Shown here: positions 2,958 through 56,733 of the stretch, piece by piece
Layout: each line of letters starts with the position of its first letter
Position numbering within the stretch: position 1 is the first letter of the stretch
NCBI GenBank assembly: GCA_001777575.1
Contig: MFEL01000010.1
Coordinates: forward strand, 84,661 to 148,660
Length of the DNA stretch: 64,000 bases
Reading direction: 5' to 3'
DNA from: Candidatus Doudnabacteria bacterium RIFCSPHIGHO2_01_FULL_46_24
GTDB taxonomy: Bacteria; Patescibacteriota; Doudnabacteria; UBA920; O2-02-FULL-48-8
Notes under the pieces: model-generated
The model's database searches: none
What the model was told of the DNA's origin: nothing
The model's input: only the letters and a program-made list of their open reading frames with translations
Translations under genes and position numbers: made by a program

Positions 2958-2992
2958 ACGGTCAGCCTCAAGGCTAGACCTTTTTTTTTAAG
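2958..2992 (+). terminator. Rho-independent terminator (hairpin GGTCAGCCT..AGGCTAGACC followed by T9)
   Basis: Seen directly: stem-loop followed by tttttttttt immediately after the small plus-strand ORF, abutting the secA stop. Confidence 0.6.
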
Positions 2993-31187: not shown

Positions 31188-32396
31188 TTACCTCAACAAC
31201 TCCAAGGCTTTGTCCATTTGGGGATCACGGTCAGCTTCGATGTCTTCTCTGGTCATCTCAACTTTGATGTCCGGCTCCAAGCCGTTTTTGTTAATATCCC
31301 GCCCTTTTGGCGTGCGCCATTTGCCGGTGGTGATTTTCAAATCCGAGCCGTCTTTCATAAGGTTAAGCTCCTGCACCGAGCCTTTGCCAAAAGTTTTATC
31401 GCCAACCAATGTTGCCTTCTTATGATCCTGCAGCGCCCCGGCCAAAATTTCCGCAGCCGAAGCCGAGCCGCCGTTTATTAAAACCACGGTTTTTAACTCT
31501 TTCAGCCTAGCCAACCCGCTTGATGGATAAGATTTCTCCTCGTCATTAAACCGAACTTCTTTGACCACAACTTTCCCTGAATCCACCCAATTCGAGGCGA
31601 TCTCGATGCTGGTCTCCAAGTATCCGCCCGGGTTATTTCTCAAATCCACAATCAGTCCGTCATAATTGCCGGCCATGACCACATCCACCACATGATCAAA
31701 CAAGCCTTTGGTATCGTCCCCAAAACGATTTAATTTGATAATGCCAATCTTTTTCCCGTCAATCTCGTTGGTTTCGAATTTCAAGCTTTTGATCTCGATG
31801 CGGGCGCGCTGAATAATTTTCTCTTCCGGCTGCCGCTCATCTTTATGCAAAATGCTCAACGTGACTTCGCTGCCGGCAGGGCCGCGGATTTTGGACACTG
31901 CCTGGTCAACTGTCAGTCCGTTGGTCGGCTCGCCATTTATGGCTAATATCCCATCTCCGGGCAGAAGGCCGGCTTTCGCCGCCGGAGTGCCTTCCAGAGG
32001 CGCTATGACCACGAGCTGGTCATTTTTGATGCCAATCTCCGCGCCGATGCCATTAAAACTCCCGGAAAGTTCTTCATCGAATTCTTTCGCTTCTTTCGGA
32101 TCAAGGAAAACCGTATAAGGATCACCAACGGCCCTGACCAATCCGGCAACTGCGCCATATAAAAGCTCCTGTTGGTCAAGCGGTCGGTCCACATATTTCC
32201 GGTTAAGCAAATCCAAAGTCTCCCAAAGCAGCGAGTAATCCCCGTTGGTGGGAACATTGCCGCGCTGGATGGTGATGTTGCTGCCCTCAAGCCTAATCTT
32301 TTGACTACCAACGCCATAGCCAATACCAAACACCAGCCCCAAAATAAGAACTGAGGCAATTAAATTGAGACTTTTTTTCTGGTCCATTATTGTCAC
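31188..32396 (-). CDS. ctpA: Carboxyl-terminal processing protease (peptidase S41, PDZ-containing)
   Basis: N-terminal TM, PDZ region, and catalytic GGSASAAEILAGALQD. Confidence 0.85.
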   Translation of the reverse strand: MTIMDQKKSLNLIASVLILGLVFGIGYGVGSQKIRLEGSNITIQRGNVPTNGDYSLLWETLDLLNRKYVDRPLDQQELLYGAVAGLVRAVGDPYTVFLDPKEAKEFDEELSGSFNGIGAEIGIKNDQLVVIAPLEGTPAAKAGLLPGDGILAINGEPTNGLTVDQAVSKIRGPAGSEVTLSILHKDERQPEEKIIQRARIEIKSLKFETNEIDGKKIGIIKLNRFGDDTKGLFDHVVDVVMAGNYDGLIVDLRNNPGGYLETSIEIASNWVDSGKVVVKEVRFNDEEKSYPSSGLARLKELKTVVLINGGSASAAEILAGALQDHKKATLVGDKTFGKGSVQELNLMKDGSDLKITTGKWRTPKGRDINKNGLEPDIKVEMTREDIEADRDPQMDKALELLR

Positions 32397-37457: not shown

Positions 37458-38831
37458 TTATGCTATATTTGTGCTATATCCAGGTATAACTTTTTTACTA
37501 ACGGCCAAGTGGATTGCCAGCAGCAAAAATAAATCCAAATACATCTCTGCTCGGACCGTAAATGACAGGTAAATAGTCATGATAATGAAAAAGCAGGCGT
37601 AGGCGTAGAGGTTTAATGATAGGAAATTTGGACTTGATTGCCAATAGCGCCAGACTGCAGCCAAGATACCAGCAAGCAGGAATGGCACGAAGACAAAAGC
37701 GGCCTTGCCGAAATCCTGAACAAATGGGAAGAGGTACGTGCCCGTGTTCCACCAGCATTTGAAGATGGCGCAAAGGTCGAAGTCAGACTTGTATTTGTTG
37801 AGCGTGGGAATCGCTTTGCCAAAAATGTTCGTGAACGGATCAAGAGAAACTTTGCCACGCTGCAAATCATTTGTCTCATAATATTCCGTGACGTGCAAAA
37901 GCGCCTGCTGGTTGAAAGAAACGCCGACATAAATCGGCAGCAAGGCCTTGCCTATGGGATTGAAGCCCGAAGAATCAATGCTGGTCACTCCGGCCAAATA
38001 ATCAGTTGTGCCATAGCTTTTATACTGCCGATAAAGCGGCACGGCGGCCAGAACCAGAACGGAAATCAAAAGAAAAATCGGATAAAACTTGAGCGCTTGC
38101 TTGAGGTTGGGTTTGCGCATCAAAAGATACAGGGCCATGACCCAAAGATCTACAAAAAATATCTGGGTGCGTGAGGCAAAGAGGGTGAGGCTTATAGCGC
38201 CGATGAGAATTATGAGTATAAGATCCCACTTTGTAGCGTTCCGATTTATCGGCTCTGGGTTTGAGCTCATAAATGGGCGCGCTACATAAAAAATCAGAAA
38301 AAAACTAAGCGGGATAAACAGCCGGGCAAACTGGGCTGTGTAATTGATTAAGCCCGGCACTTGCTCATCGGCCACGAATCGGAAGACGTCGGTGTCAGGA
38401 GCGAGCAGCGGAAAGTTGCCAGCACGGGTATAGAACATTGCAAGGGCAATAAGTGAAATGAAAAATAAGGCATAAATTATTACTCTTAAACTGTTAATTT
38501 TTAACTGTTGGCTGCTAACTCCGCTGTAGCCCGCTGATTTATCAGCGCCCATAAATGGGCGGGTTACATTTTTGCGCCAAATCCAATCAAACACATAAAA
38601 TCCAATCACAAACATACACAAAGACACGATTAAAAGCAGCCAAAAGGCCGGATACCAGTCTTTTTCAATACGCGACAGATGAAGCTGCGGCACGCCAAGT
38701 CCGATCATCCACGTCGAAAGCATGAGCCACAACGGGCTGAACTGATGTTTTCGGTCGCGCAGAAAAAGATAGAAAAACACTGCGAATAAGATTAGGAAAA
38801 TTGAGAATAAAAACATATAATATGCTCCCAT
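37458..38831 (-). CDS. Polytopic membrane protein; O-antigen/oligosaccharide-repeat polymerase (Wzy)-like
   Basis: About 11 predicted TM segments; sits between flippase and GT genes. No soluble-domain motifs. Confidence 0.45.
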   Translation of the reverse strand: MGAYYMFLFSIFLILFAVFFYLFLRDRKHQFSPLWLMLSTWMIGLGVPQLHLSRIEKDWYPAFWLLLIVSLCMFVIGFYVFDWIWRKNVTRPFMGADKSAGYSGVSSQQLKINSLRVIIYALFFISLIALAMFYTRAGNFPLLAPDTDVFRFVADEQVPGLINYTAQFARLFIPLSFFLIFYVARPFMSSNPEPINRNATKWDLILIILIGAISLTLFASRTQIFFVDLWVMALYLLMRKPNLKQALKFYPIFLLISVLVLAAVPLYRQYKSYGTTDYLAGVTSIDSSGFNPIGKALLPIYVGVSFNQQALLHVTEYYETNDLQRGKVSLDPFTNIFGKAIPTLNKYKSDFDLCAIFKCWWNTGTYLFPFVQDFGKAAFVFVPFLLAGILAAVWRYWQSSPNFLSLNLYAYACFFIIMTIYLSFTVRAEMYLDLFLLLAIHLAVSKKVIPGYSTNIA

Positions 38832-43104: not shown

Positions 43105-43317
43105 TTAATAACCTGTAAGCTTTGACAAATTCTTCCGCTGATCGCGAAGTTTCTTTGCCATTGTCTCTAACGCCTGCAGTGCTGATTCTTTTTCTTTCTC
43201 CAACGCCTGAAGTTCTCTCGGTTTTTGATCTCCATTTTCAACCCGACCTTCTGACACCCTCATCATAGCCTGATCTCTTTCGGACATGCCCCCTATATCT
43301 TCTTCTGGTCTTGGCAT
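43105..43317 (-). CDS. Hypothetical coiled-coil protein; possibly the N-terminal part of a frameshifted gene that continues to 42933
   Basis: ORF1 is MPRPEEDIGG...KLRDQRKNLSKLTGY. The -1 frame continues protein-like without a start (...EEFVKAYRLLNPRPVGRTPVRYEDDVKAAIDNHPVWKRVEKELNDGMEHVQQKLTGIIEQIDRLNQS), stopping at 42933-42935. Confidence 0.3.
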   Translation of the reverse strand: MPRPEEDIGGMSERDQAMMRVSEGRVENGDQKPRELQALEKEKESALQALETMAKKLRDQRKNLSKLTGY

Positions 43318-43501: not shown

Positions 43502-45232
43502 TCAGGGTATAACATTTCCTTTTTCGTAAGCTTCAACCTCGGCTTGCGGCAGGATCGTGGCTTTGGGGTAGCGGGCTTTTTTGTAGGAGACAGCTGTGAA
43601 CATGCTCAATACGCCATTTTCGACTTTGTAAATCGCAGTTGACTGGTCGCCCTTAAGCACGGTGCCGTCTTTGGGCGGGAAGGGCACGCCCGTTGGGATT
43701 TGGTTGAATTCTTCCGCCCCGATCATCAGGCGCGGGAAGTTGCCCACGCTTCTTTGTTGGAACACGAACGCGGACACAAACTGTTTTTGCCCATTCTTAA
43801 ACCAAAAGATGCCGGTGTCCCCTTTCAGGCTGATGGAAATCGATTCCGGCGGGTAAACAAACTGGCCCGAAGGAATACCCAAGACTTCGGCGTCTGTCAA
43901 TTTCATCAGCTTGGCAAACGAAAACTTGCGCGCCACAAACACTTCGTAAGAAATCGGGCGCTTCAAGCCGGCGTCAACCAGATACACGGTCAAATCGGTT
44001 TCGCCCGTGATGAGCGTGCCGTCAACCGGGGCAACAAACGAACCGGTTTCGTAAGAGTCAACTTCAGCTTGGGGCAGGGTCACGACATTGGCAAACGAAA
44101 ATTTGCGCTGGACGAATACCGGATAAGAAATGGCGTGCTTTTTGGTGTCTTCAATCAGATAAACGGCCGGACTGACATCACCTTTGATGAGAGTGCTGTC
44201 AAGCGGCGGCATGGGTTTTTCCGAAATATAGGAATCGAACTCGGTCTGCGACACGCTGATGACATTATTCGTGTTGATTTTGCGCTGTGTCGCCACGAAT
44301 TGAGAAAACGGCCGTTTGGCGCCATTGTCAATGACGTAGAAATTCGGATCGCCGACTAACTGGATGACTGTGCCATTGGGATACTTAAACCACAGCGAAT
44401 AATATCGCCAAAAATTGTAATTGCCGTTGAAGACGTGCGGTGTATAACGGTAAAGCGCGGCTGTGGCAAAATTGCCCAAAGAAAGGCTTTGGGTTGCGGC
44501 CACGTTGTCAAAGCCGCCTAAAGTGTTGTCCAAGATGATCGTATCCCCTTTCCGCGCGGTTCTGGCAATGGGCCTGCCAAAAGTCTGGCTGGAGGCATCC
44601 ACGCCCGGGCCGCGGCCCACACGCACGCCGCCGACTTCAGTGCGGAACGATTTCATTAGAGAAGCAGCCGCGCCCAGCCACCGGCTGCCGGAAGAATCAA
44701 AACTGCCGAACAGCTGCCGGTAAAAACCCAAAAAGATTTCGCCGCAGCCTTCGTAATCCGGGCAACCAAACCCCAAGGCGCGGTCCAGGCGGTTCTGCAA
44801 ACTGTTGCCGTTAAAATTGCCCAAAATCAGGCTTTGCTCTTTTTGCAGCATGACCAGCATCACCTGCGGATTTAACCCCTTGGAAACCGAGGCGTCATAA
44901 ATCAACTCGGAGGCAGTGCGCAGCCGGCCCAAATTGGGACTGGGGTCCTCGAGCGCGACCTTGGTCAGGGTGTCCGGCTCTTTGAGTTTGAGCAAAAAAT
45001 CCTGGCTGGTGTCGGCCAGCAAAGAGTTGTGCTGCTCGAAAAATTTCTGAATGCCGGCAGCCGAGCCAAAAGTGCCAACATCGGCAAAAGCCTCGTCAGG
45101 GATCAAAAGGCTGGGATTGAAAGCCGGATCAATCGCGCCCTGTCCTAAGGCAACGAGAGGCGCGGAAATCACAAATCCTAAAGTCAGAACTACCAATATT
45201 TTGGCTTTTGAATTTTGACTTTTTAATTTCAT
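43502..45232 (-). CDS. Secreted protein with four C-terminal tandem repeats of about 45-50 aa, shared with the adjacent S8 protease
   Basis: Signal peptide MKLKSQNSKAKILVVLTLGFVISAPLVALG. Repeats such as YLVDAGLKRPISYEVFVARKFSFAKLMKLTDAEVLGIPSG. 4-nt overlap with the upstream gene. Confidence 0.5.
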   Translation of the reverse strand: MKLKSQNSKAKILVVLTLGFVISAPLVALGQGAIDPAFNPSLLIPDEAFADVGTFGSAAGIQKFFEQHNSLLADTSQDFLLKLKEPDTLTKVALEDPSPNLGRLRTASELIYDASVSKGLNPQVMLVMLQKEQSLILGNFNGNSLQNRLDRALGFGCPDYEGCGEIFLGFYRQLFGSFDSSGSRWLGAAASLMKSFRTEVGGVRVGRGPGVDASSQTFGRPIARTARKGDTIILDNTLGGFDNVAATQSLSLGNFATAALYRYTPHVFNGNYNFWRYYSLWFKYPNGTVIQLVGDPNFYVIDNGAKRPFSQFVATQRKINTNNVISVSQTEFDSYISEKPMPPLDSTLIKGDVSPAVYLIEDTKKHAISYPVFVQRKFSFANVVTLPQAEVDSYETGSFVAPVDGTLITGETDLTVYLVDAGLKRPISYEVFVARKFSFAKLMKLTDAEVLGIPSGQFVYPPESISISLKGDTGIFWFKNGQKQFVSAFVFQQRSVGNFPRLMIGAEEFNQIPTGVPFPPKDGTVLKGDQSTAIYKVENGVLSMFTAVSYKKARYPKATILPQAEVEAYEKGNVIP

Positions 45233-47235
45233 AGTATTGGGCTCCCGGGGGCAATGACCTCAATCTCTGCTTGCGGCAGAATTTTAATGCTCGAAAACTT
45301 GTAGCCGCGGGAAACGAAAGCATTATAAGACAGCGGCCGACGCGTACCGTTTTCAATCACCGAAACTTCAGCAGATGCGGCTGATTTGACCAAAGTACCC
45401 TCCAACGGCGGCAGCCAGTATGAATCGCCGGGTGCCGGAATATGTAAAAATTCATCCTGAGTCACGGAGATGACTTTGGCGAACGAAAGTTGGCGCTGGG
45501 TAAAGATAAAATAAGTCACCGCTCGTCTCACTCCTTGGTTCATAACATATACCGTAGGATCGCCCTTAATCAACACCATGGTGCCATCATAAGGGGCAGC
45601 CCACTCGCCGGTTAGGACATCCGCCACTTCAGAGCTGGAAAGCGTATAGACATTGGCAAAACTGTAGCCGCGGGTTATAAACACCAAATAAGTCAACGGC
45701 CGCTTGAATTCCTGTTCAATGACATACACCGTCGGGTCAGTCTCATTTTTTATCAACGTGCCCTCAAGCGGCGGCAGAGCGGGACCGGCTGGGAAGGCAG
45801 CGAGCTGATTTGAGACCTCATTGGTTATTGAAGTCTCGCTAAAGCCGCGCTGATTGAAGACAAAGCTCGAGATGAAACGTTTGGTGGAACCCGAGATGAG
45901 ATAAATCCTCCCCGTGACGGATTCACGAATAAGCGAGCCCTCGCTTGCCGGCAGGGGTGATAGCGCTTTCAGCGCATTGATTCTCCCTTTCCCCAAAAAA
46001 CCGTTGCAGGAAGAGCCAAGGCAGTTGTCTTGGTTTACGGCATCAATATTATCGGTAGAGCGAAGCAAAACGTTACGCAGTTCGACATTGCTTAAATTGG
46101 GGCTTGCGGATTTGACCAGCGCCGCCATTGCCGAAACTATGGGGGTGGCCAGTGAGGTGCCTGAGCCATAAATTAAGACATTGTTGGCGGGATCCGAAGG
46201 CAGATAGGCGGTGGTTAAAATCTTTTTGCCGGGAGCTGAAACATCCACGCAATTGATGCCAAAGTTGGAAAAGTTAGCCTTGCGATCGGAAACATCAGTG
46301 GCGGCAACTCCCAAAACCATGTTTGAGCCGAGATCCGAACAAATGGGGTAAACCGGCTTGGTGTCCAAATTGCTGCCTTGATCAGCTAAATCATTGCCGG
46401 CCGCGGACACGATCAAAACACCCCGATTAAAGGCATAGGAAATCGCATTGTTCAAAGCCGCGTCAGCGCCAAATCCGGGACCCCCGAGGCTTAAATTGAT
46501 AATCTGAGCACCATGGTCTGAGGCCCAAACAATCCCGGCGGCGACCGCGGCGACGGTGCCTGTACCGTCGGCATGCAAAGCTTTGATCGGCATAATTTTC
46601 ACACTTTGGTTTACCCCGGCGATGCCTCGGCCGTTGTTGGGAATAGCGCCGATCACTCCGGCAACCGCCGTGCCGTGGCCGTTATCATCAGAGTTGGAAT
46701 TCGCCGGGATGGTTTCATTTTTTATTGTGTCGTAGCCTTCGATAATGCGGCCATCATTAAGTTCGATGTGCGAAGCATGAATGCCGGTATCTATAACCGC
46801 AATTGTGACATTGGAACTGCCCCGCGACAACTCCCAAGCCTCAGGAATTTTTACCCTCGCCAAATACCATTGCTTTTCATCCTGAGTCGAATCAACCGTG
46901 AAATAAGGATCGTTGGTGATGATGGTCGCGGCTGCAAGTTGACGATTGGGTTGGACATACTCAAAAACATTATCCGATTGCATCGCTTTGACTAGATAAC
47001 GGCTGATCCTCCCGCTGTAAACGGTTTGCAAGCCATTGTGAGCCTCATACACAAGCTGGTGGCTCTGAAACGGGTACTTCGCCAAAACCGTCTGGCTATT
47101 CCCTGGGTCCTTGAGTCCAAAAACAATATCGACTCGCTGTTCGTTAAAAAATACGAATACGGCACCAAATAAAAAAATCGGCAGAATAAGCGCTGCAAAA
47201 ATTTTCCAGTTCAATTTGTGAAGTGTAAAAGTCAA
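45229..47235 (-). CDS. Subtilisin-like serine protease (peptidase S8) with the same C-terminal tandem repeats
   Basis: Catalytic triad motifs VAVIDTGI (Asp), HGTAVAGVIGA (His), GTSLATPIVSAMAAL (Ser). N-terminal TM/signal. Four C-terminal repeats, e.g. YVIEQEFKRPLTYLVFITRGYSFANVYTLSSSEVADVLTG. Confidence 0.8.
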   Translation of the reverse strand: MTFTLHKLNWKIFAALILPIFLFGAVFVFFNEQRVDIVFGLKDPGNSQTVLAKYPFQSHQLVYEAHNGLQTVYSGRISRYLVKAMQSDNVFEYVQPNRQLAAATIITNDPYFTVDSTQDEKQWYLARVKIPEAWELSRGSSNVTIAVIDTGIHASHIELNDGRIIEGYDTIKNETIPANSNSDDNGHGTAVAGVIGAIPNNGRGIAGVNQSVKIMPIKALHADGTGTVAAVAAGIVWASDHGAQIINLSLGGPGFGADAALNNAISYAFNRGVLIVSAAGNDLADQGSNLDTKPVYPICSDLGSNMVLGVAATDVSDRKANFSNFGINCVDVSAPGKKILTTAYLPSDPANNVLIYGSGTSLATPIVSAMAALVKSASPNLSNVELRNVLLRSTDNIDAVNQDNCLGSSCNGFLGKGRINALKALSPLPASEGSLIRESVTGRIYLISGSTKRFISSFVFNQRGFSETSITNEVSNQLAAFPAGPALPPLEGTLIKNETDPTVYVIEQEFKRPLTYLVFITRGYSFANVYTLSSSEVADVLTGEWAAPYDGTMVLIKGDPTVYVMNQGVRRAVTYFIFTQRQLSFAKVISVTQDEFLHIPAPGDSYWLPPLEGTLVKSAASAEVSVIENGTRRPLSYNAFVSRGYKFSSIKILPQAEIEVIAPGSPIL

Positions 47236-47237
47236 TT

Positions 47238-47969
47238 CTATTGATGGTTATATGGGGCGTACTTCCCAGTCAAGGCTCTCCACTTAATAATAAACAAATC
47301 GCGCAGAGATTCCAAAAAGGCGGTTGGAGGGACAGTGCTTTCCCCGGGATCGTTGCGGATAATGGGCACGGCTTTTATTCTATAACTGAATTTCAAGGCA
47401 ATTGCAAGCAATTCCATGTCAAACGCCCAACCGTGGATAGTCAGATTTCGAAAGATCTGCCTCGCGGCTCCAGCGCGAAAAGCTTTGAACCCAGCCTGCG
47501 TATCGTGAATATGGGTAACCAGCACGATCTGAATCAAATAATTGCTGAGTCGAGAGAGTATGGTTCTAAACCAAGGCTGGTGCGAATGGTGGACGGGATC
47601 CAAATAACGATCGCCTATCACGACTTCCACCCCGGATTCCAAATACGGCCAAAACTTTTCGATTTCGGAAATCGGCGTGGCATCGTCGGCATCCATAAAC
47701 ATTATATACTGACCCGTAGCTTCCGAAACGCCACGCTGGACAGCCGCTCCCTTGCCCTTGCTCCATTCCTCCAGAATCCTTGCGTTCTGGACAGACGAGC
47801 TTTCCATTTCCTTTACAACCCTGGCAGTATGATCGCGGCTGTTGTTGTCCACGACAATGATTTCGTAACCGTAATTTTGTTTCTCGAGATATTGATCCAC
47901 ATCCTCCAGCGTTTTTCTAATCCGTTTCTCTTCGTTGAAGGCTGGGATGATTACTGAGAGTTTTATCAT
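47238..47969 (-). CDS. Glycosyltransferase family 2 (polyprenol-phosphate sugar synthase, DPM1/GtrB-like)
   Basis: MIKLSVIIPAFNEEKRIRKTLEDV...IIVVDNNSRDHT...FMDADD, from the internal start. Confidence 0.75.
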   Translation of the reverse strand: MIKLSVIIPAFNEEKRIRKTLEDVDQYLEKQNYGYEIIVVDNNSRDHTARVVKEMESSSVQNARILEEWSKGKGAAVQRGVSEATGQYIMFMDADDATPISEIEKFWPYLESGVEVVIGDRYLDPVHHSHQPWFRTILSRLSNYLIQIVLVTHIHDTQAGFKAFRAGAARQIFRNLTIHGWAFDMELLAIALKFSYRIKAVPIIRNDPGESTVPPTAFLESLRDLFIIKWRALTGKYAPYNHQ

Positions 47970-48960
47970 ATCCAATATTATAACACACTTTGTGCCAATT
48001 CCAGGCAGTCGAGACAATGGTATTCAAATCCGAATATTGGGCGGAAAAATTCAGATCTTGTTTGATTTTGGCCACATCCGCCATCAGTTGGGCTGGATCG
48101 CCAGGGCGCCGGTTACTATATTCGATCATGACCATTTTGCCCGTCACTTCCATGACCGCATCCACCATTTGCTTAACCGAATAGCCCACTCCAGTCCCGA
48201 CGTTGTAGGTAAAACAGCCGGAATCTTCATCCAGTTTTTTCAGGGCCAAAACGTGGGCTGCGGCCAAATCGACGACGTGAATGTAATCGCGGACTGCGGT
48301 TCCGTCCGGCGTGTTATAATCGCTGCCGTATATTTTAAGCATCTCGTCCTGCCTCGCGGCGACACGCAAAATCTTCGGAATCAAGTGGGTAACAAATGGC
48401 CGCTTCTCGCCCAAGGTGCCGTCTAAACTTGCACCGCAGGCATTGAAATAGCGCAGGCTGACTGAGGAAAGTTCGTGGGCGGATCCATACCAGCCTAAAA
48501 TTTTCTCAAACATGAGCTTGGTCTCGCCGTAGGGGTTGGTCGGCCTCAAGATGGAAGTTTCTGAAATAGGCAGCCGCTCTGGCTCGCCGTAAACAGCCGC
48601 GGAAGAGGAAAAAATAATTTTCTTGACCCCATGCCTGACCATGACATTCAAAAGGTTAAGCCCGTTGACCACGTTGTTTTGGAAATATTTTTCCGGATAC
48701 AACACTGACTCCTCCACGATGATGGAGCCGGCAAAGTGGACGACTGCGCCAATGTTGTGTTGGGCGAAGATCTTGTCCAAAAGAACCGCGTCGGCTAAAT
48801 CGCCGACAATAAGCTGGCAATTGACCGAATCAGCCGAGCCTGTCGACAGATTGTCCAACACCAAAACATCGAAACCTGCCTTCTGCAGTTCTCTGACGGT
48901 CTGCGAGCCGATGTAGCCGGCGCCCCCGGTCACCAAAATTTTCTTCTTGCCTAAACCCAT
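47917..48960 (-). CDS. galE: UDP-glucose 4-epimerase
   Basis: ILVTGGAGYIGSQTV Rossmann motif and the YxxxK SDR motif (YGETK). Confidence 0.85.
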   Translation of the reverse strand: MGLGKKKILVTGGAGYIGSQTVRELQKAGFDVLVLDNLSTGSADSVNCQLIVGDLADAVLLDKIFAQHNIGAVVHFAGSIIVEESVLYPEKYFQNNVVNGLNLLNVMVRHGVKKIIFSSSAAVYGEPERLPISETSILRPTNPYGETKLMFEKILGWYGSAHELSSVSLRYFNACGASLDGTLGEKRPFVTHLIPKILRVAARQDEMLKIYGSDYNTPDGTAVRDYIHVVDLAAAHVLALKKLDEDSGCFTYNVGTGVGYSVKQMVDAVMEVTGKMVMIEYSNRRPGDPAQLMADVAKIKQDLNFSAQYSDLNTIVSTAWNWHKVCYNIGYDKTLSNHPSLQRRETD

Positions 48961-49120: not shown

Positions 49121-49744
49121 TTATATTATGCTTCGTTTGAAACGGTAGATGGAAACAGAAAGTGTTATGCCTAAGGCTAGAATGAAGCTTAGCCAGCCAG
49201 ACGGGCCGCTTTGCGGGGCGTATGCCCCTGCCACATTGCCTGGAGTTTCCCCGGGACTGCCGCCAGCGCTTGATGGCGAAGGGGTTGGCGTCAAAGCCTG
49301 CGCTCTGGCCACTGCCACGCTAGTTTCATTCCCGAACCTCAACTTCATTACCAAATCAGAAGAAGCAGGCAAGTCGTTTTTGACCCTCACCGTGATTTTC
49401 TTCTGGATGGACCCGTTAGCCGGCACGTCCAGCGGCGTCCAAACCAGCGAGCCGGTAGCCGAGTTATAATTAGCCCCTTGGGCATCCACAAGCGTGGATA
49501 ATTCCTGCAAGTCCATAATGCTGGCCTCCACGATATATCCGGCCAGAATCTCTTTGCCAGGATTCTCCACTGTGAGAGCGTAAACCACACTCTCGCCGGG
49601 CTGGACCAAAGCAGCCGAAGGAGAGACGGAAGTCATAGCCTGCGGAAGAGATTTGCTCTTTTGCCGTTGGAGGAAATAAACACCGCCTAGAATCAAGAGC
49701 AAAACCACCAAACCGGCAACGGTTTTCGCAATGTTATTGGGCAT
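49121..49744 (-). CDS. Small DUF11-type surface protein with an N-terminal TM and a C-terminal sorting-signal-like YAPQSG + TM + basic tail
   Basis: ...NVAGAYAPQSGPSGWLSFILALGITLSVSIYRFKRSII at the C-terminus. Confidence 0.5.
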   Translation of the reverse strand: MPNNIAKTVAGLVVLLLILGGVYFLQRQKSKSLPQAMTSVSPSAALVQPGESVVYALTVENPGKEILAGYIVEASIMDLQELSTLVDAQGANYNSATGSLVWTPLDVPANGSIQKKITVRVKNDLPASSDLVMKLRFGNETSVAVARAQALTPTPSPSSAGGSPGETPGNVAGAYAPQSGPSGWLSFILALGITLSVSIYRFKRSII

Positions 49745-52700
49745 GATTTCGAAGCTTAAATCTGAATTTCTCTTTTCTTAAGGCATATGATGCCACGGTC
49801 AGCGAGGCAAACAAGAGGCTTAGGGCCAAGGTCGCTCCGGTTTTGGGCGCTATGAATTCCCCGCCCACTCGGGGCACGCGCACATCTACGCGATTGCCGT
49901 AGAAGTTGGTCATGACGAAATCCGACGCGGACGGAAACGCGGACCGGACGCGGACTGTAAAGACTTTATCCACCTTACTGCCAGCGGGAACCGTTACTGC
50001 CGGCCAAGACAACTTGTACAAGCCAAGGTTGAAAGTGGCATCGCCAAAAGAGGTTAATTCCGCCAGCTCCAGGATGTCCCTAATGTCATCTTCCACCACG
50101 AAATTTGTAGCCGCTTGATTGCCGCGATTTTCCACCGAGAGAGTATAGACAATGATATCGCCGCTTTGGGCCGTAACAGTCGTCGCATCCACTCCCCTGG
50201 TCTGGTTAAACGCGCGTTTGCTTTGAAGCAAATCAATGTTGCCGCCCAAGACCCGCCCGATTACCGTTACACTCGCCGTGTCAGTCATGGACGTGGCATT
50301 GTCGGCAAACACGGTTGCGGCATTAATGTATGTGGTGTCAACAGACACATTCACAACGGTAACTTCAAAGGTGATATTTCGGCTCGCCCCAATGGCCATA
50401 TCACCCAGACGCAAATCGGTGTTGAATAAATCACCGCTGAAAGAAGTCGAGCCGTCCAGCCTGACAGAACCGCTGTTCAAGCTTAAGGCTGATGGCAAAG
50501 AATCAATCACCCGGACATTGCGGGCTGTTTCTGTGCCGTTGTTGGTCACGGTCATCCTAAACTCCACGCGCTCAGAAGCCCTGGCTGAAACCGAATCAAA
50601 GAATGAGGTGCCGGCGGTCAAGTTCCGAACTTGCTTGTTAAGCGATAGTGAAGCGAGATTGCCGCCCACTCCCTCGCGAGAGACAATGACAATGGCGTTA
50701 TCCGTCACTGATTGAGTGTTGGATGACGAGGCTGTCGCGGTGTTAACCCAGGAACTGGAGCCAACCGGGAAATTGGAAGCGGAAGCCGCGGTCGCAGAAA
50801 TCCTGATTGTCCGGCTGCCGCCGGCTGACATATTGCCCAAACTGAAGGTCAAAGAACCGGTTTGGGTCGTCCCGCTGTCAGGCGTGACGAAGTTGAGATT
50901 GAAGTTCTGAGGCAAGATGTCGGTCATCGTGACATTGTTGGCAGTTGAATTATTAGCGATGACTATGACACGGAATTCCACCTGCTCGCCAGGACGGGCT
51001 GAAATCGATTCAGTGAAAATGGTCTGGCCCTGCGTGGCGTTACGGACGGTTTTCTCAATGCCTAAGATCGGAGGAGGGGGAGGTGGCGGTGGAGGAGGTG
51101 GCGGTGGCGGTGGAGGCGGCGCAACGCCTCGGTTTACAACCACATGCGCGGTATCCGACACCGGACTTACCTCAACAGCCGCTGCTGTGGCCAGGTTAGT
51201 CCAGGTAGATGTGCCGATTGGGAAATTGGACTCAGAAGCGGCAACTGCAATTAGCCGGACGCTTTTGCTGCTTCCTGACGCCATATTCCCCAAATTGAAG
51301 GACAAGGCAGTGGGACCTGAAGTTACCCCTGTATCAAGCACGACAAAAGCCAAGCTGAAGTTGTTCGGTAGGACATCGTTCAAACCAACGCCATTGGCGG
51401 TCACTGACCCAACAGAGGATACCACAACCCTAAATTCTACTTGTTCGCCAGGCGCAGCAGCCACGGAGTCGATAAATCTGATCTGGCCTTGGGAAATGTT
51501 TCTGACGGTTTTTTGAATGCTCAGCGCAGGCAATCCGGGCGGCGGAGGGGGTGGAGGAGGAGGAGGAGGAGGCGCAGTTGTTCTGGTGACTACAACCTGG
51601 GCATTATCCGTAATGGAATTAACATTGGAGGCTGAGGCTGTGGCAACATTGACCCAGGTGGAAGAGCCGACTGGGAAGTTTGCTTCAGAAGCGGCAATCA
51701 CCCGTAAGAAGATGGTCTTGCTCGCTCCCCCGGGCATGTTGCCTAAATTAAATGAGGTCGGAGTGGGACCGGCAGTTACTCCTGAATCAAGCACCACGAA
51801 ATTGAGAGCAAAGTTGTTCGGCAAGGTATCGCTCAAAACCACGTTCTGAGCCGCAGCTGAGCCAGTGGATGTAACTGTGACCCGGAACTCCACGTGCTCT
51901 GCAGGCAACGCGGCCACGGAATCAATGAAAGTGGTTTGACCCTGCGACACGTTTCTCACGGTTTTTTCAATGCTCAAAGCCGGCACGCCAGGCGGCGGTG
52001 GAGGCGGCGGAGGGGGAATAAAAATATCATTATTGGTTGCCGTGCAGGTTTTATGGTCGCCCGCTGCCAAGTTGATTCTACCATTTGAGTCGCACTGCCC
52101 GCTCCAACCAATAAATTCATAACCGGAGCGGTTAGTTTCCGTGGCAAAGTAAATGCCCGGTGATAAAGTCACAGTCTGGCCGCTGCGCAACTCAAGCCCG
52201 CCGACGAACAGTGGAAAATCGGCAGGTTGGGCAGTGCCGCCGTTGTCATTGATGACTTGTTTGAACAAAGTGACTGAAGCTACTCCTGGCGGCGGAGGAG
52301 GTGGCGACGGCACCGGTGTTGGCGGCGGAGGAGGTGGCGGCGGCACAGGTGTTGGCGGCGGAGGTGGCGTTATCGGCGTGACAACCCTTAATTCAAAAGT
52401 CACGAACCGCAAAAATTCATAACAGCCGTTCATATCGCCCAAAGACGCCCCGCTCGAAACCACACTGTCGGAAAATCCGCCAAGCAAAACCGGGCCGCGG
52501 GCATACACTTGTGCCGAGCCGGGAATGTATTCCAGATAATCGCTGATTCCCATGCCCACGAACACGTCGCCGCCTTTCTGGCCGCTGGTGATGGTGGAGT
52601 GATTATTGGCCCAAGCAGAAGCGGCAAGTGTCGCAAATCCTCTGGAAGAAGGAATGTTCGCGGCAATCATGACATTACGCGCCACGTTTTCCGGAAAATC

Positions 52701-53990
52701 CAGATTGCCGTTATGGACATACAGTCTGACGCGGATAACATCGCCTGAGACAGCGGCAACATCACGCGTATAACCGGAGCCTCGCGTGAGATTTTTGGCT
52801 CTCAAAAGCGGGTAGTCGGTGCAGTCTGCCCCTGATTCGGAAATCGGCCAAATGTTTAGAAGCGGCTGCCCTCTGGGCGGGGTTGGGAAACAGCCTGATG
52901 GCGGAGGCGGGGTCGGGCCTGGCGGAGGCGGAGGAGGAGCTGGAGGTGTAACCAAGGGAATCAAAGACGCGTCAAGTTGGGTATTTGAATCAAGGGTAAT
53001 GTGATAATCGCGGCCATAATAATTCGGGTGGCGAAATTCAACGTTGAAGCCGCCATCATGGACATTGGAAAAATTGACCGTGCCGTTGCCGCCAGTAGTG
53101 CCGCGTGTGCCGTGGGAAGGGTTGCTGCGGTCATCAGCCACGAGCAGCACATCCACGCCTGATATCCGCAAGTCAAGCGACGGATCGCCTTCAAAGACTC
53201 TCACGAAAAGCGTGTGGCTTGAACCAGGAGGCGGCGGGGTCGGACCTGGAGGAGGAGGGACAGGTCCTGGCGGAGGTGTGGGGCCCGGAGGCGGAGTCAA
53301 AAAATTCAAAGACGCATCCAGTTGGGTATTGGAATCCAAAGTAATGTGATAATCCCTACCGTCATATCCGGTTTTCCTAATCTCAACATTGAAGCCGCCG
53401 GCATTGACATTGTCAAAATTAAAAGTACCGTCAGAACCGGTAGTCCCGCGCCATCCGTGCGATGGATTGCCGCGGTCATCAGCGACAAGCAGAATGTCGG
53501 CACCGCTTACCCGCCTGTTTAAAGACGGGTCGCCGTCAAAAACGCGGACAAACAAATCGTAAGTGGCATCTGAAGGAGACGGAGGAGGCGTTGGCCCAGG
53601 CGGCGACGCAATTACAAAAATCGAGGCGTCAAGCTGAGTATTGGAATCCAAAGTAATGTGATAATCCCTACCGTCATAGCCAGACTTCCGAACTTCAACG
53701 TTGTAACCGCCTTCATAAACGCCGCTGAAGTAATATGTGCCGTCTCCGCCCGAAGTTCCCCGGACTCCATGCGACGGGCTGTCGCGGTCATCGGCCACGA
53801 GTAAAATATCAGCGCCGGAAAGCCTCTGATCCAAGGACGGATCGCCCTCAAACACGCGCACAAACAAATCGTGCTGGTTGCCGGTTATAGCCGAGCTCGA
53901 CCCAACGAAAGAAACCACGGATGCCAAAACCAAAGCCGCGCCCATGATGCGCGCGATGTTTGATCTGGAAATGTTCTTGATATATTGCAT
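49734..53990 (-). CDS. Giant (about 1420 aa) proline-rich surface protein: three N-terminal beta-sandwich repeats, three DUF11 repeats separated by poly-Pro linkers, and a C-terminal IAPKTG sorting signal
   Basis: Likely start at MQYIKNISRSNIARIMGAALVLASVVSFVGSSSA (signal peptide). The track's extra 145 upstream codons overlap the neighbouring GC-rich gene. C-terminus is ...FIAPKTGATLALSLLFASLTVASYALRKEKFRFKLRNHAQ. Confidence 0.7.
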   Translation of the reverse strand: MQYIKNISRSNIARIMGAALVLASVVSFVGSSSAITGNQHDLFVRVFEGDPSLDQRLSGADILLVADDRDSPSHGVRGTSGGDGTYYFSGVYEGGYNVEVRKSGYDGRDYHITLDSNTQLDASIFVIASPPGPTPPPSPSDATYDLFVRVFDGDPSLNRRVSGADILLVADDRGNPSHGWRGTTGSDGTFNFDNVNAGGFNVEIRKTGYDGRDYHITLDSNTQLDASLNFLTPPPGPTPPPGPVPPPPGPTPPPPGSSHTLFVRVFEGDPSLDLRISGVDVLLVADDRSNPSHGTRGTTGGNGTVNFSNVHDGGFNVEFRHPNYYGRDYHITLDSNTQLDASLIPLVTPPAPPPPPPGPTPPPPSGCFPTPPRGQPLLNIWPISESGADCTDYPLLRAKNLTRGSGYTRDVAAVSGDVIRVRLYVHNGNLDFPENVARNVMIAANIPSSRGFATLAASAWANNHSTITSGQKGGDVFVGMGISDYLEYIPGSAQVYARGPVLLGGFSDSVVSSGASLGDMNGCYEFLRFVTFELRVVTPITPPPPPTPVPPPPPPPPTPVPSPPPPPPGVASVTLFKQVINDNGGTAQPADFPLFVGGLELRSGQTVTLSPGIYFATETNRSGYEFIGWSGQCDSNGRINLAAGDHKTCTATNNDIFIPPPPPPPPPGVPALSIEKTVRNVSQGQTTFIDSVAALPAEHVEFRVTVTSTGSAAAQNVVLSDTLPNNFALNFVVLDSGVTAGPTPTSFNLGNMPGGASKTIFLRVIAASEANFPVGSSTWVNVATASASNVNSITDNAQVVVTRTTAPPPPPPPPPPPPGLPALSIQKTVRNISQGQIRFIDSVAAAPGEQVEFRVVVSSVGSVTANGVGLNDVLPNNFSLAFVVLDTGVTSGPTALSFNLGNMASGSSKSVRLIAVAASESNFPIGTSTWTNLATAAAVEVSPVSDTAHVVVNRGVAPPPPPPPPPPPPPPPPPILGIEKTVRNATQGQTIFTESISARPGEQVEFRVIVIANNSTANNVTMTDILPQNFNLNFVTPDSGTTQTGSLTFSLGNMSAGGSRTIRISATAASASNFPVGSSSWVNTATASSSNTQSVTDNAIVIVSREGVGGNLASLSLNKQVRNLTAGTSFFDSVSARASERVEFRMTVTNNGTETARNVRVIDSLPSALSLNSGSVRLDGSTSFSGDLFNTDLRLGDMAIGASRNITFEVTVVNVSVDTTYINAATVFADNATSMTDTASVTVIGRVLGGNIDLLQSKRAFNQTRGVDATTVTAQSGDIIVYTLSVENRGNQAATNFVVEDDIRDILELAELTSFGDATFNLGLYKLSWPAVTVPAGSKVDKVFTVRVRSAFPSASDFVMTNFYGNRVDVRVPRVGGEFIAPKTGATLALSLLFASLTVASYALRKEKFRFKLRNHAQ
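52950..53900. repeat. Three tandem repeats of about 310 nt (roughly 90% nt identity between copies 2 and 3) inside the giant protein gene, plus several GGN/CCN runs encoding poly-Pro
   Basis: Near-identical stretches such as ccaaagtaatgtgataatccctaccgtcata at about 53335 and 53648. Poly-G/GGN runs at about 51061-51120, 51521-51575, 52281-52380 and 53225-53290. Confidence 0.7.
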
Positions 53991-54000
53991 AGTTTGGAAA

Positions 54001-54063
54001 AAAGAGTTGTGGTGACGAAATCCGCCGGCTGGCAGAAAGCTATCGCCACCACGATCCCTTGCG
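54001..54063 (-). terminator. Rho-independent terminator after the GC-rich secreted-protein gene (GGTGGCGA...TCGTCACC then CTCTTTTTTCC)
   Basis: Seen directly on the minus strand. Confidence 0.55.
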
Positions 54064-55020
54064 TTATGGCGACCCGCCCGGATTGGTGGGCCGACCATCT
54101 CCTCCTTTGATGGGCTCCCGGTTAATCCGCCTAAAACCTCGATCCTTATCCAGGAGCGCCCAGGCAACGCCGGCCCCAAGCGGCGGGACCCAGCAGCGCC
54201 AGGCATACTTGCCGCAGACACTGCCTCTGCGCTCGTTGACGTACGAGTCACGGATCCGGTACACCTCAGGTGCGCCTTCCGGGATCCGGACAACCAAGCG
54301 TTGCGTCTGGTCGCGGAAGCCCTTGACTTCTCCGAGTTCCCTGATGACAAGCGCGGATCCAGGCTCGACGCCGACGAAGGTGATCTTCGTGCCGTCGAAA
54401 TGGCCACGGATCTTGTCTCTTTCACTCGGCTGGCCGATGAAGGTAACTGAGCTCCACCCCTTGGGCGGATCCAGTTCCTTGTCGCCCTTGAGCCAGAGTT
54501 TGGGGATGAGCACGGTTACGAGCCTCTGAGGCTCAGGAGGCGGCGGTGGCACGAGCGGCGGAGGAACCACGATTGGCTCCTCTCGGATGACTACTGGCTC
54601 CGGCTTGACCGGAATGCTGACCGGCCGCGAATTGCCGCACTGCTTGCCGTTTGACGACCCATAATCGAACAGGTCGCGGCCTTGGGCGTCCTGCGCCACT
54701 TGGGTCCCTTTCGGCCGCAGCACCCAGCGATCCCCATTGCGAGTCCGCATCCAGGTACACTCGTCGTACTCTTGGGTGCGAACCGAAGCGACCTTGACGC
54801 GGCTGGTGTACCGCATCAAATGGACATCGAGCGGCTCGTAGTATTCCTGCGCCACGCATGCCTTGAGATCAGGCAGCGACGGCGGAAAACTGACGAGGCT
54901 CGACGGATAGCCGCGGTAACGGTCATCCGGCGCGATATCCGAAGACTGCGCTAGCGCGAGAACGGGCAGCAGTGCGAACAGCACTGCAGCCGCGACGATC
55001 AACCGTACATGCTGTCGCAT
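54064..55020 (-). CDS. Secreted hypothetical protein, markedly GC-rich relative to the flanking genes
   Basis: Signal peptide MRQHVRLIVAAAVLFALLPVLALAQS; Pro-rich linker PPPLVPPPPPEP. No family recognised. Confidence 0.45.
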   Translation of the reverse strand: MRQHVRLIVAAAVLFALLPVLALAQSSDIAPDDRYRGYPSSLVSFPPSLPDLKACVAQEYYEPLDVHLMRYTSRVKVASVRTQEYDECTWMRTRNGDRWVLRPKGTQVAQDAQGRDLFDYGSSNGKQCGNSRPVSIPVKPEPVVIREEPIVVPPPLVPPPPPEPQRLVTVLIPKLWLKGDKELDPPKGWSSVTFIGQPSERDKIRGHFDGTKITFVGVEPGSALVIRELGEVKGFRDQTQRLVVRIPEGAPEVYRIRDSYVNERRGSVCGKYAWRCWVPPLGAGVAWALLDKDRGFRRINREPIKGGDGRPTNPGGSP

Positions 55021-55242
55021 CTGTGCCCCTCCAAGGTCAGAAATCTAACTTAGGTTGTGAAAATGCCCCGCTCAAAGATACCTGAGCAGAACAGCCTATC
55101 ATACACTAACAATGCTCCTTTTGTCAACCCGCGAATTTAGCATATTGGCCTGATTGCTTATGCTCAATGGCTGAAGGCCACATATTAGCTGGCGTTTTTA
55201 GCTCTTTTTAGACAAATCGTCAATAAATTGTGGATGTAATAA

Positions 55243-55283
55243 CAAAACACCTCAACCGGAGTTGAGGTGTTTATTTTGGCTAA
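55243..55283 (-). terminator. Terminator module AACACCTCAACC-ggag-GTTGAGGTGTTTATTTTGGCTAA; near-identical to the metK terminator
   Basis: About 40 nt near-identical to the reverse complement of 7691-7735, differing only in the loop. U-rich on both strands. Confidence 0.65.
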
Positions 55284-55284
55284 T

Positions 55285-56733
55285 CTAAGCCTTTTTTGCT
55301 TTCTTCAAACGCCGCTGGCCAAAGATCACCCCGCTGCCCACAGTCAGGGCTGCCAGGATAAGGCTCAAGATAGACGAGGGGCCGGTTCTGGGAGCCACAA
55401 ATTGGGTGCTGGCTACGACAGAGGTGCCGGCCACAGCGGCAACATTAATGTTCGTGATGTTTCCAAAGTTGTTAGTCATCACGCGGTCGGTGGCTGAAGT
55501 GTTTCGAACTTTGATTGAGAATCTTTTTTCCATCTTGCTGGAAGCAAGAATATCCGCCGGCTGCCATTTGAGCTTCAAAGTTCCCAGAAAAAATTCCGCG
55601 CCGTTGAAATCCACCAGGTTGGAAAGCTGCAAGACATCTGACAAATCATCCCAAACGACATACGCCTGGGCCGTGCCGTTCCCGGTATTCTGGGCGGTGA
55701 GGGTATAGACGATGAGGTCATTCGGTTGGGCCGTCACTTCTGTGGCATTGCGGTTCTGCGTTTGGTTGAAAGCCTTGTGGCTGAGTACGATATTGATCGA
55801 AGTTCCGGCAACTGATCCGCCGCTCATCGCACCCTGGATGGAAACCTGGGCGCCGTCAGCCCGAACCGACCCGTTATCCATAGTCAGAGTCACAGTATTG
55901 GTAATCATGCTGCCGGTATCTATGCTTGGGATAATAATAACTTCATAGGTAATAACTCTGGTCTGGTTTTTGGCCAGATCACCTAACAGGAGATGGGAAT
56001 TGAACAAATCGCCAAAGAACGTATCCATACCCGCAACCTTCAGGGTGCCGGGAACAAACTTAAGGTTAATCGGCAGAATTTTATTGATGGCTTTAAGGTT
56101 GACTGCGGTGTCGCCGGTATTGCTGATGGCGGTTCTAAATTCCAGCTTATCGCCCAGGCGGGCTGGAATCAATTTGCCAAAAGCCGTGCCTTGCGTGACG
56201 TTGCGGCCTTCCATGGCGACCGCAATCAGCGGGTTGGCATCCCTGGTCACCTGAATCGCCACTGAGTTTATCAGCGGCAGTGTTGATTGAATTATATTGT
56301 CAGCCGTAGCGCTGGCAGTGGATGCATAAACGTTTTGCCCCGTGGGGAAATTGTCCGCGGTCCCTATGCGGGCCAGGAAAGTGCTGAAGCTGTTTGCCCC
56401 GACGGCTAAATTGCCAAAGTTGGTCAGATCGGTCCCGGAAACGCGGGTGATGCCGGCGGGCAAAGAAATTTGCACTCTGGCATTGGTCGCCACATTCCCG
56501 CCCGCATTGCTCAACTGTACGCGAAACTCAAGCTGATCGCCGGGTTTGCCTCCAATGCCAAAGTCAAACTCGGTCTGACCAAAAGTGACGTTTCTGGCCT
56601 GATACTGCAGGAATAATTTTGTTTGCGGGGCGGTTTGGGCGCCTGCCAAGCTGAAGCTGCCGGCTACGGCGAGGATTAATGCCAGACCAACCGGGATGGC
56701 GATTTTGTTTTTGAGTGGCTGAGTCTTAATCAT
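55285..56733 (-). CDS. DUF11-repeat surface protein with a signal peptide and a C-terminal VAPRTG sorting signal
   Basis: N-terminal MIKTQPLKNKIAIPVGLALILAVAGSFSLAGAQTA; C-terminal ...FVAPRTGPSSILSLILAALTVGSGVIFGQRRLKKAKKA. Confidence 0.6.
   Translation of the reverse strand: MIKTQPLKNKIAIPVGLALILAVAGSFSLAGAQTAPQTKLFLQYQARNVTFGQTEFDFGIGGKPGDQLEFRVQLSNAGGNVATNARVQISLPAGITRVSGTDLTNFGNLAVGANSFSTFLARIGTADNFPTGQNVYASTASATADNIIQSTLPLINSVAIQVTRDANPLIAVAMEGRNVTQGTAFGKLIPARLGDKLEFRTAISNTGDTAVNLKAINKILPINLKFVPGTLKVAGMDTFFGDLFNSHLLLGDLAKNQTRVITYEVIIIPSIDTGSMITNTVTLTMDNGSVRADGAQVSIQGAMSGGSVAGTSINIVLSHKAFNQTQNRNATEVTAQPNDLIVYTLTAQNTGNGTAQAYVVWDDLSDVLQLSNLVDFNGAEFFLGTLKLKWQPADILASSKMEKRFSIKVRNTSATDRVMTNNFGNITNINVAAVAGTSVVASTQFVAPRTGPSSILSLILAALTVGSGVIFGQRRLKKAKKA

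Follow-up and report, generated by a model that had tools for sequence, protein, structure and literature searches.

An S8 protease and a putative lysozyme-like partner share C-terminal EccB-type repeats in a Doudnabacteria envelope gene block

Introduction

Exported enzymes that join a catalytic head to a wall-binding tail are an ordinary design in bacteria. Bacillus subtilis has a wall-bound S8 protease, WprA, that coexists with autolysins, and modular autolysins carry repeated wall-targeting tails of the SLH, LysM, SH3b, CW_binding or LGFP types. Here we analyse a 64,000-nt stretch of DNA (the window) from Candidatus Doudnabacteria bacterium RIFCSPHIGHO2_01_FULL_46_24 (contig MFEL01000010.1), in which two adjacent genes, both on the minus strand, show the same combination of an exported enzyme head with a repeated tail. 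Gene B (45229..47235, an open reading frame (ORF) of 668 aa with a TTG start) encodes a thermitase-like S8 subtilase that ends in four repeats, and its partner, gene A (43502..45232, an ORF of 576 aa with an ATG start), encodes an N-terminal domain without annotation followed by five repeats of the same kind. The pair differs from WprA and the modular autolysins in that its tail is none of those Pfam repeats, and in that a protease and a putative hydrolase lie side by side with one tail type. What is less ordinary than the design itself is that the tail and one of the two heads both belong to uncatalogued families.

The closest described relative of the tail is the repeat of EccB from type VII secretion systems (T7SS). 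In EccB1 each repeat consists of four strands and two helices, and the repeats pack in pairs, R1 with R4 and R2 with R3, through hydrophobic faces (PMC4769845). A fold related to that of the EccB repeats is found in PlyCB, the wall-binding subunit of the streptococcal phage lysin PlyC (4F87), which assembles into an octameric ring (PMC4769845); PlyCB differs from the proteins described here in being a separate subunit without a fused tandem array, and it is not among the 50 listed Foldseek matches of our model of A. A literature search returned no description of an EccB-type repeat outside T7SS. We consider it likely, with a rough probability of 0.6, that A and B are a wall-bound protease and a lysozyme-like glycan hydrolase, both held on the wall by EccB-type arrays and encoded at the end of an envelope operon.

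Results

Repeat units were delimited by an iterated hidden Markov model (HMM) search together with a MAFFT alignment. In B they occupy residues 426-668 (45232..45960; all window features located in this paper lie on the minus strand), as supported by the iterated HMM, the alignment and an independent family profile, and fall into four units, at residues 426-483 (45787-45960), 484-542 (45610-45786), 543-604 (45424-45609) and 605-668 (45232-45423). The array of A, delimited by the HMM, the structure model and Foldseek, covers residues 279-576 (43505..44398) and consists of five units, at residues 279-337 (44222-44398), 338-396 (44045-44221), 397-455 (43868-44044), 456-514 (43691-43867) and 515-576 (43505-43690), the fifth being the most divergent. 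The repeat period is 58-62 aa (about 59 aa), of which some 54 aa form the core. A first-pass annotation of this DNA had correctly placed a secreted protein next to an S8 subtilisin, as seen from the ORFs, the PF00082 match and the N-terminal export segments of both products, and had given each protein four repeats of 45-50 aa; four is the right number for B, while for A the count, and for both the unit size, need correcting, since A has five units and the period is about 59 aa.

Direct comparison of the C-terminal regions of A and B by BLASTP gave alignments in several registers (E 6e-38, 3e-34 and 5e-22), in keeping with the earlier view that the two C-termini are homologous, and all nine units were recognised by a profile built mostly from the repeats of other proteins (E 6e-17 to 4e-4). 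Pairwise identity between units ranges from 12 to 46%, and no colinear correspondence could be found between the units of the A array and those of the B array. The family profile detected no further carrier of the repeat among the other ORFs of the window. At E<=1 the S8 family was the sole Pfam match of A and B; neither protein matched a model for SLH, LysM, PKD, choline-binding (CW_binding_1/2), SH3b or LGFP repeats, which agrees with the first-pass annotation as far as SLH, LysM, PKD and choline-binding repeats are concerned.

An AlphaFold2 model of A, made with 54 homologues, reached a mean predicted local distance difference test score (pLDDT) of 91.2 and a predicted template modelling score (pTM) of 0.73, and shows the array as five beta-beta-beta-alpha-beta-alpha units, each with four strands and two helices. 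When this model was compared with the PDB by Foldseek, 11 matches were obtained at E<=0.001, and all of them were EccB (E 6e-7 to 2e-4, probability 0.96-1.00). The structures matched were EccB1 (3x3n, 5ebd, 5ebc, 3x3m, 5cyu, 4kk7), EccB5 in ESX-5 (7nps, 7np7) and EccB3 (6sgy), so that ESX-1, ESX-3 and ESX-5 are all represented. Apart from yielding the only significant structural matches, R1-R4 of EccB (PF05108) resemble the repeat in unit length (about 51-59 aa) and in the make-up of the unit, a four-stranded sheet with two helices. On the other hand, the pair lacks the N-terminal membrane helix of EccB and the central beta-sheet core flanked by repeat pairs that follows it; the repeats of A and B form tandem C-terminal arrays on enzymes, and the locus is not a T7SS locus.

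A sequence connection between the repeat and EccB was found in other members of the repeat family. P0302, a protein with a CHAP domain and five repeats that was found by the window repeat profile at E 4.8e-33, matches PF05108 with 61.4 bits over residues 180-244 (profile positions 183-247), which lie on its first repeat (173-232); for comparison, R2 of EccB1 spans E185-P241 in protein numbering. PF05108 matches also overlap repeats in P0309 and P0356, and in P0351 the match falls between two detected repeats. Since intermediates such as P0302 match both the window profile and PF05108, the link between the repeat and EccB is closed at the sequence level, and we conclude that the repeat of A and B is a distant homologue of the EccB R1-R4 repeat domains. 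The family, described as unknown in the first-pass annotation, can therefore be named, from the Foldseek matches to 11 EccB structures and the PF05108 matches of its members. When P0302 alone was compared with PDB sequences, only CHAP-domain matches were returned, and a tblastn search of plasmids for annotated EccB found none.

The repeat is widespread. A search of representatives of clusters at 50% identity with the nine-repeat window profile (E<=1e-3) found it in 2,862 representatives, each with 2-16 matched stretches; E<=1e-10 was reached by 916 of them and E<=1e-30 by 83. The array ends no more than 30 aa from the C-terminus in 104 of 147 representatives. Among the domains found in a sample of 66 repeat proteins were SpoIID (13), Peptidase_S8 (11), Amidase_2 (9), M23 (4), Glucosaminidase (GH73; 3) and CHAP (1), with SH3_3 and LGFP also present. 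Peptidoglycan hydrolases and proteases that bear the repeat occur in Patescibacteria, Actinomycetota and other lineages; a taxonomy look-up of the repeat-bearing representatives returned few names. The phage protein family phrog_9616, which has no assigned function, matches the repeat as well. Because the repeat is C-terminal and joined to peptidoglycan hydrolases and S8 proteases, wall targeting is the best reading of its role; its position and domain company are classical for a cell-wall-binding module, and from them we infer that it most likely is one, much as the first-pass annotation had supposed in proposing a binding module that co-localises the two proteins.

Some metagenomic family members depart from this pattern, with very long arrays (up to 16 units) or mid-protein repeats (P0241, 1423 aa; P0248, 3254 aa; P0254, 2072 aa; P0278, 2471 aa). 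On plasmids, the repeat array of P0302 used as query matched a PGF-pre-PGF domain protein from the archaeon Methanomethylovorans hollandica and proteins of the CDP-glycerol glycerophosphotransferase (TagF-like) family from Priestia, hints that the repeat may have spread beyond bacteria and may be linked to teichoic-acid enzymes.

The head of A follows a Sec signal peptide at residues 1-30 (45143..45232), assigned from sequence features and the model: a Lys-rich N-region, the hydrophobic core ILVVLTLGFVISAPLVAL and then ALG/QG can be read in the sequence, and the modelled N-terminus is a low-confidence helix (7-22) followed by a disordered stretch (25-28). Residues 31-283 (44384..45142) form a conserved, mostly helical domain, which the model and its invariant columns mark as a putative lysozyme-like glycan hydrolase; modelled alone, it reached pLDDT 92.2 and pTM 0.90. 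Nine positions are invariant in 13 distant members of the family (K131, E132, G154, Q173, T257, Y263, P265, F274 and F282). E132, which lies at the C-terminal end of helix 122-133, is invariant in the 54 orthologues as well as in the 13 distant relatives. K131, Y263 and P265 are likewise unchanged throughout the wide family, in Patescibacteria and in members farther away, while C157 and C163 are invariant among the 54 close orthologues only.

The N-terminal domains of A and its distant homologues had no match in Pfam, NCBIfam (E<=1) or PHROGs, and a profile of the domain had none among PDB sequences. Among its weak Foldseek matches, 10 of the 15 listed from the PDB are lytic transglycosylases or GH73 autolysins (SltB1/2/3, Slt35, MltC, Acp, LytB), and about 19 of the 35 listed from the viral set BFVD are GH73, SLT or peptidoglycan hydrolases. 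Besides dominating these weak fold matches, the GH73 and GH23 SLT enzymes have in common with A an invariant Glu at the C-terminal end of a helix, with the pattern 'A..y.iNP..l....' before it. They differ in that no score between them and A is significant; A has, in addition, an extra beta-rich stretch inserted around residues 176-251, and its close relatives carry the Cys157/Cys163 pair.

By profile search, members of the family were detected in Patescibacteria and among Actinomycetota of the genera Mobiluncus, Agromyces, Litorihabitans, Geodermatophilus and Cellulomonas. The C-terminal company of the domain varies: homologues end in LGFP, SLH, dockerin, DUF5648 or N_BRCA1_IG tails or in EccB-type repeats. 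Judged from these sequences, the head of the family stays constant while its wall-targeting tails can be exchanged. Away from the pair described here, genes of the family again lie near wall-glycan genes, in the following neighbourhoods, none of which has an S8 gene as neighbour. In Litorihabitans (L085) the homologue is near a glycosyltransferase family 2 (GT2) gene, an epimerase gene, GtrA and genes for LGFP/VanY proteins, so that the GT2-epimerase association of the window (see below) is seen again in an actinobacterium; in two Parcubacteria-type genomes (L004, L087) it is near a WecG/TagA-family transferase and an M23 peptidase; and in Mobiluncus (L086) a CW_binding_2 protein abuts it. Since such homologues occur elsewhere without S8 neighbours, the domain probably has its own function and is probably no accessory of the protease. 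Taken together, the model and the conserved residues suggest that this function is most likely the hydrolysis of peptidoglycan or of a wall-linked glycan. Some database records of homologues of the domain carry the name 'hemagglutinin', and a literature search on Doudnabacteria and this name found nothing relevant.

The head of B is a member of Peptidase_S8 (PF00082, residues 141-397, E 1.5e-52; its score of 179.1 bits exceeds the gathering cut-off of 21.8). Its catalytic domain (residues 111-425, 45961..46905), delimited by motifs and by alignment to Ak.1 protease, has the triad D149 (VIDTG), H187 (GHGT) and S361 (GTSLA) and the oxyanion residue N281 (AAGND), and among PDB sequences it is closest to Ak.1 protease and thermitase. 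Hydrophobicity and comparison with orthologues mark residues 1-31 (47143..47235) as a signal peptide or signal anchor: the hydrophobic segment spans residues 12-30, the strongest hydrophobic window begins at residue 12, no other strongly hydrophobic segment is present, and in B orthologues AxA-like cleavage sites follow the equivalent segment. Residues 32-110 (46906..47142) are a putative subtilase prodomain, on the basis of orthologue comparison; in all B orthologues a conserved block of some 70 aa separates the signal peptide from TNDPFFT...QWYL, with which the catalytic domain begins. The block itself has no direct Pfam match, and a Fervidolysin_NPro-like match was found in 5 of the 66 sampled repeat-bearing proteins.

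We also considered whether B could be a T7SS mycosin, a partner that EccB-type repeats bring to mind. The mycosin model TIGR03921 is the best NCBIfam match of B, at 186.3 bits and so below its equivalog cut-off of 278.75, and the 60 highest-ranking PDB sequence matches include no mycosin and consist of thermitase and subtilisins. B ends in repeats and has no C-terminal membrane anchor, and its neighbours are polysaccharide-synthesis genes, with no ESX gene among them. With a sub-cut-off NCBIfam score and no mycosin among the top PDB matches, a 'mycosin plus EccB' parallel is not supported.

Conservation of the pair was followed in a scan for relatives of A that took one genome per species and gave 468, the best 80 of which were fetched; 73 species-level loci had enough upstream sequence to be informative. 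In 72 of these 73 the gene immediately upstream of A, in the same orientation, encodes an S8 protease; the exception is a locus labelled Uhrbacteria (L064). The gap from the S8 gene to A has a median of 19 nt in the 72 loci, the 4-nt ATGA overlap occurs in four of them, and an overlap of any length in eight. The order is thus kept while overlap is rare, and so co-transcription is plausible and conserved, and ATGA coupling is a local feature. In distant Doudnabacteria the order epimerase, GT2, S8, A is also found in one locus (L003) and GT2, S8, A in another (L001). B has more than 100 orthologues of 50-71% identity, mainly in Doudnabacteria, and A likewise more than 100, every one of them named 'hypothetical'; homologues of both are assigned to Candidatus Doudnabacteria or Patescibacteria. 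Close orthologues of the pair are also present in metagenome-assembled genomes labelled 'uncultured Candidatus Saccharibacteria', 'Acidobacteriaceae' or 'Verrucomicrobiae' (L007, L008, L010, L011, L019 and many others), which are probably mislabelled or mis-binned assemblies.

In the window itself the stop codon of B and the start codon of A overlap in ATGA (45229..45232), as read directly from the sequence; the junction, with 4 nt in common, is ...CCA ATA CTA TGA / ATG AAA TTA, and GGGAG stands 9 nt 5' of the ATG of gene A. The translational coupling proposed in the first-pass annotation may thus fit this copy and is not supported as a general trait, given four overlaps in 72 relatives and a median gap of 19 nt. 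Upstream of B, Pfam identified a GT2 glycosyltransferase (47238-48017 as listed; its real start is probably later) and an NAD-dependent sugar epimerase (47917-48960). Together they span 47238..48960, and a single transcription unit comprising the epimerase, GT2, B and A is probable. A polysaccharide flippase and a GT4 glycosyltransferase were identified by Pfam farther downstream, so that wall-polysaccharide genes lie on both sides of the pair, and a Pfam search of the window ORFs found no T7SS/ESX genes among its neighbours.

A promoter-like site lies 5' of the epimerase (49058-49030) and a strong terminator-like hairpin downstream of A (42889-42866); both are consensus matches only, and in consensus scans of the window such sites were no more frequent than in shuffled sequence. 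Between gene A and the hairpin the ORF list contains one small ORF of 70 aa (43105-43317). Four small genes (74-135 aa), none of them with a Pfam match, come after gene A in distant Doudnabacteria (L001, 5236-6748; L002, 4405-5890).

Most of the remaining long ORFs have the same orientation: nearly all long ORFs in the window are read from the minus strand, and most of its length has a negative GC skew. The housekeeping genes include SecA (2988-5561), a Mur ligase (13824-15179), MurG (16212-17312) and an S41 C-terminal processing protease with a PDZ domain (31188-32396); from the presence of SecA, the Mur ligase and MurG it follows that the organism exports proteins by Sec and synthesises peptidoglycan. 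A cluster of surface proteins with DUF11 repeats occupies 49121-56733. Its giant ORF (49734-54425; 1563 aa in the ORF list, but probably extended too far at its GTG start) has CarboxypepD_reg-like domains and long poly-proline linkers, and two smaller DUF11 proteins are encoded at 49121-49744 (207 aa) and 55285-56733; at least the 207-aa and giant proteins have a hydrophobic segment followed by basic residues at their C-terminal end. Three further ORFs, at 37458-38831 (457 aa), 54064-55020 (318 aa) and 26907-28457 (516 aa), had no Pfam match at the thresholds used.

Discussion

If our preferred reading is correct, a cell-envelope operon (epimerase, GT2, S8, partner) would have B and A as its final two large genes, and both products would be exported by Sec. 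B would be made as the pre-pro-enzyme of a thermitase-like subtilase, and the N-terminal domain of A would be a divergent lysozyme-like glycan hydrolase acting through the invariant Glu132. The two arrays would hold both enzymes on the wall, either on peptidoglycan or on an attached wall glycopolymer, and the shared targeting module would thereby put a wall-bound protease and an autolysin-type enzyme on the same substrate, where they might influence each other, for example through the protease trimming or turning over the hydrolase.

Several observations weigh against this picture. TM-scores between the model of A and the EccB structures are low (0.10-0.18), as the different arrangement of the same units in the arrays would lead one to expect. 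A and B themselves have no PF05108 match at E<=1, a profile of the nine window repeats found no EccB chain among PDB sequences, and a profile of 89 diverse repeats found no EccB either, just spurious short BurrH matches. For EccB, the work on EccB1 states that there is no experimental proof of peptidoglycan binding by the repeats (PMC4769845). As for the head of A, none of its Foldseek matches is significant (best E 1.9 in the PDB and 1.3 in BFVD), and when three GH73 domains were compared with it by hhalign the probability was 0.9%, which is not significant, although the alignment sets E132 opposite the GH73 catalytic Glu. Moreover, the window copy of B has no clear signal-peptide cleavage site, and its N-terminal segment may therefore be a signal anchor.

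The arrays could instead be protein-protein modules, with those of A and B pairing into a heteromeric complex of protease and partner, so that the wall would not be their ligand. The way EccB1 repeats pack, R1 against R4 and R2 against R3, and the octameric ring formed by the PlyCB fold (PMC4769845) would be compatible with this, as would the adjacency of the two genes in 72 of 73 informative genomes and the whole-protein pTM of A (0.73), which suggests rigid contacts between repeats. At the same time, the repeat is shared by thousands of proteins with diverse architectures, including CHAP, SpoIID and amidase heads, usually as the only repeat gene in view; proteins of the A type with the same repeats occur without an S8 neighbour; and the units of A do not correspond to those of B in a colinear, co-evolving way. 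We consider such pairing unlikely.

Patescibacteria are generally thought to live on other cells, and the pair might be imagined as an offensive tool of an episymbiont from the candidate phyla radiation (CPR), with repeats that bind the envelope of a host or prey and enzymes that open it for attachment or nutrients. The placement of the organism in Doudnabacteria/Patescibacteria fits this idea, and the phage family phrog_9616 that matches the repeat, together with the use of the PlyCB fold in a phage wall-binding subunit, could point in the same direction. However, the genes are surrounded by a housekeeping envelope block (epimerase, GT2, flippase, GT4), the Mur ligase and MurG of the organism itself are encoded in the same window, the same modular designs are found in free-living Actinomycetota, and nothing at this locus points to a host, all of which makes an offensive role improbable. 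Least probable of all is the proposal of the first-pass annotation that the partner is non-catalytic and that its N-terminal domain inhibits or chaperones the protease or recruits its substrates (or, as the 'hemagglutinin' records might imply, is a plain adhesin): the tightly kept gene order, the occasional start/stop overlap and the lack of a significant enzymatic family assignment would allow it, but the protease carries a putative prodomain of its own, the N-terminal domain of A occurs in Parcubacteria-type genomes and in another phylum, Actinomycetota, without an S8 neighbour and with other wall-binding tails, and its invariant Lys-Glu at a helix end and mostly lysozyme-like weak fold matches point to catalysis.

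Beyond this locus we would propose, tentatively and at somewhat less than even odds, that the EccB repeat is a widespread, uncatalogued wall-binding module (more than 2,800 clusters) from which the periplasmic part of EccB was built and through which EccB anchors the T7SS to peptidoglycan, and that the N-terminal domain of A represents a new lysozyme-like family. If so, a probable function would become available for a repeat that has no stand-alone Pfam or NCBIfam model and is found in thousands of secreted proteins, and the untested suggestion that mycobacterial EccB repeats bind peptidoglycan (PMC4769845) would gain evidence by association. The N-terminal domain, as found in Patescibacteria and Actinomycetota, would be flagged as a candidate family of cell-wall glycan hydrolases, one tied to genes for wall-polysaccharide synthesis. 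For the little-known CPR bacteria themselves, the pair would add two conserved envelope enzymes, which could act in cell separation or possibly in contact with a host.

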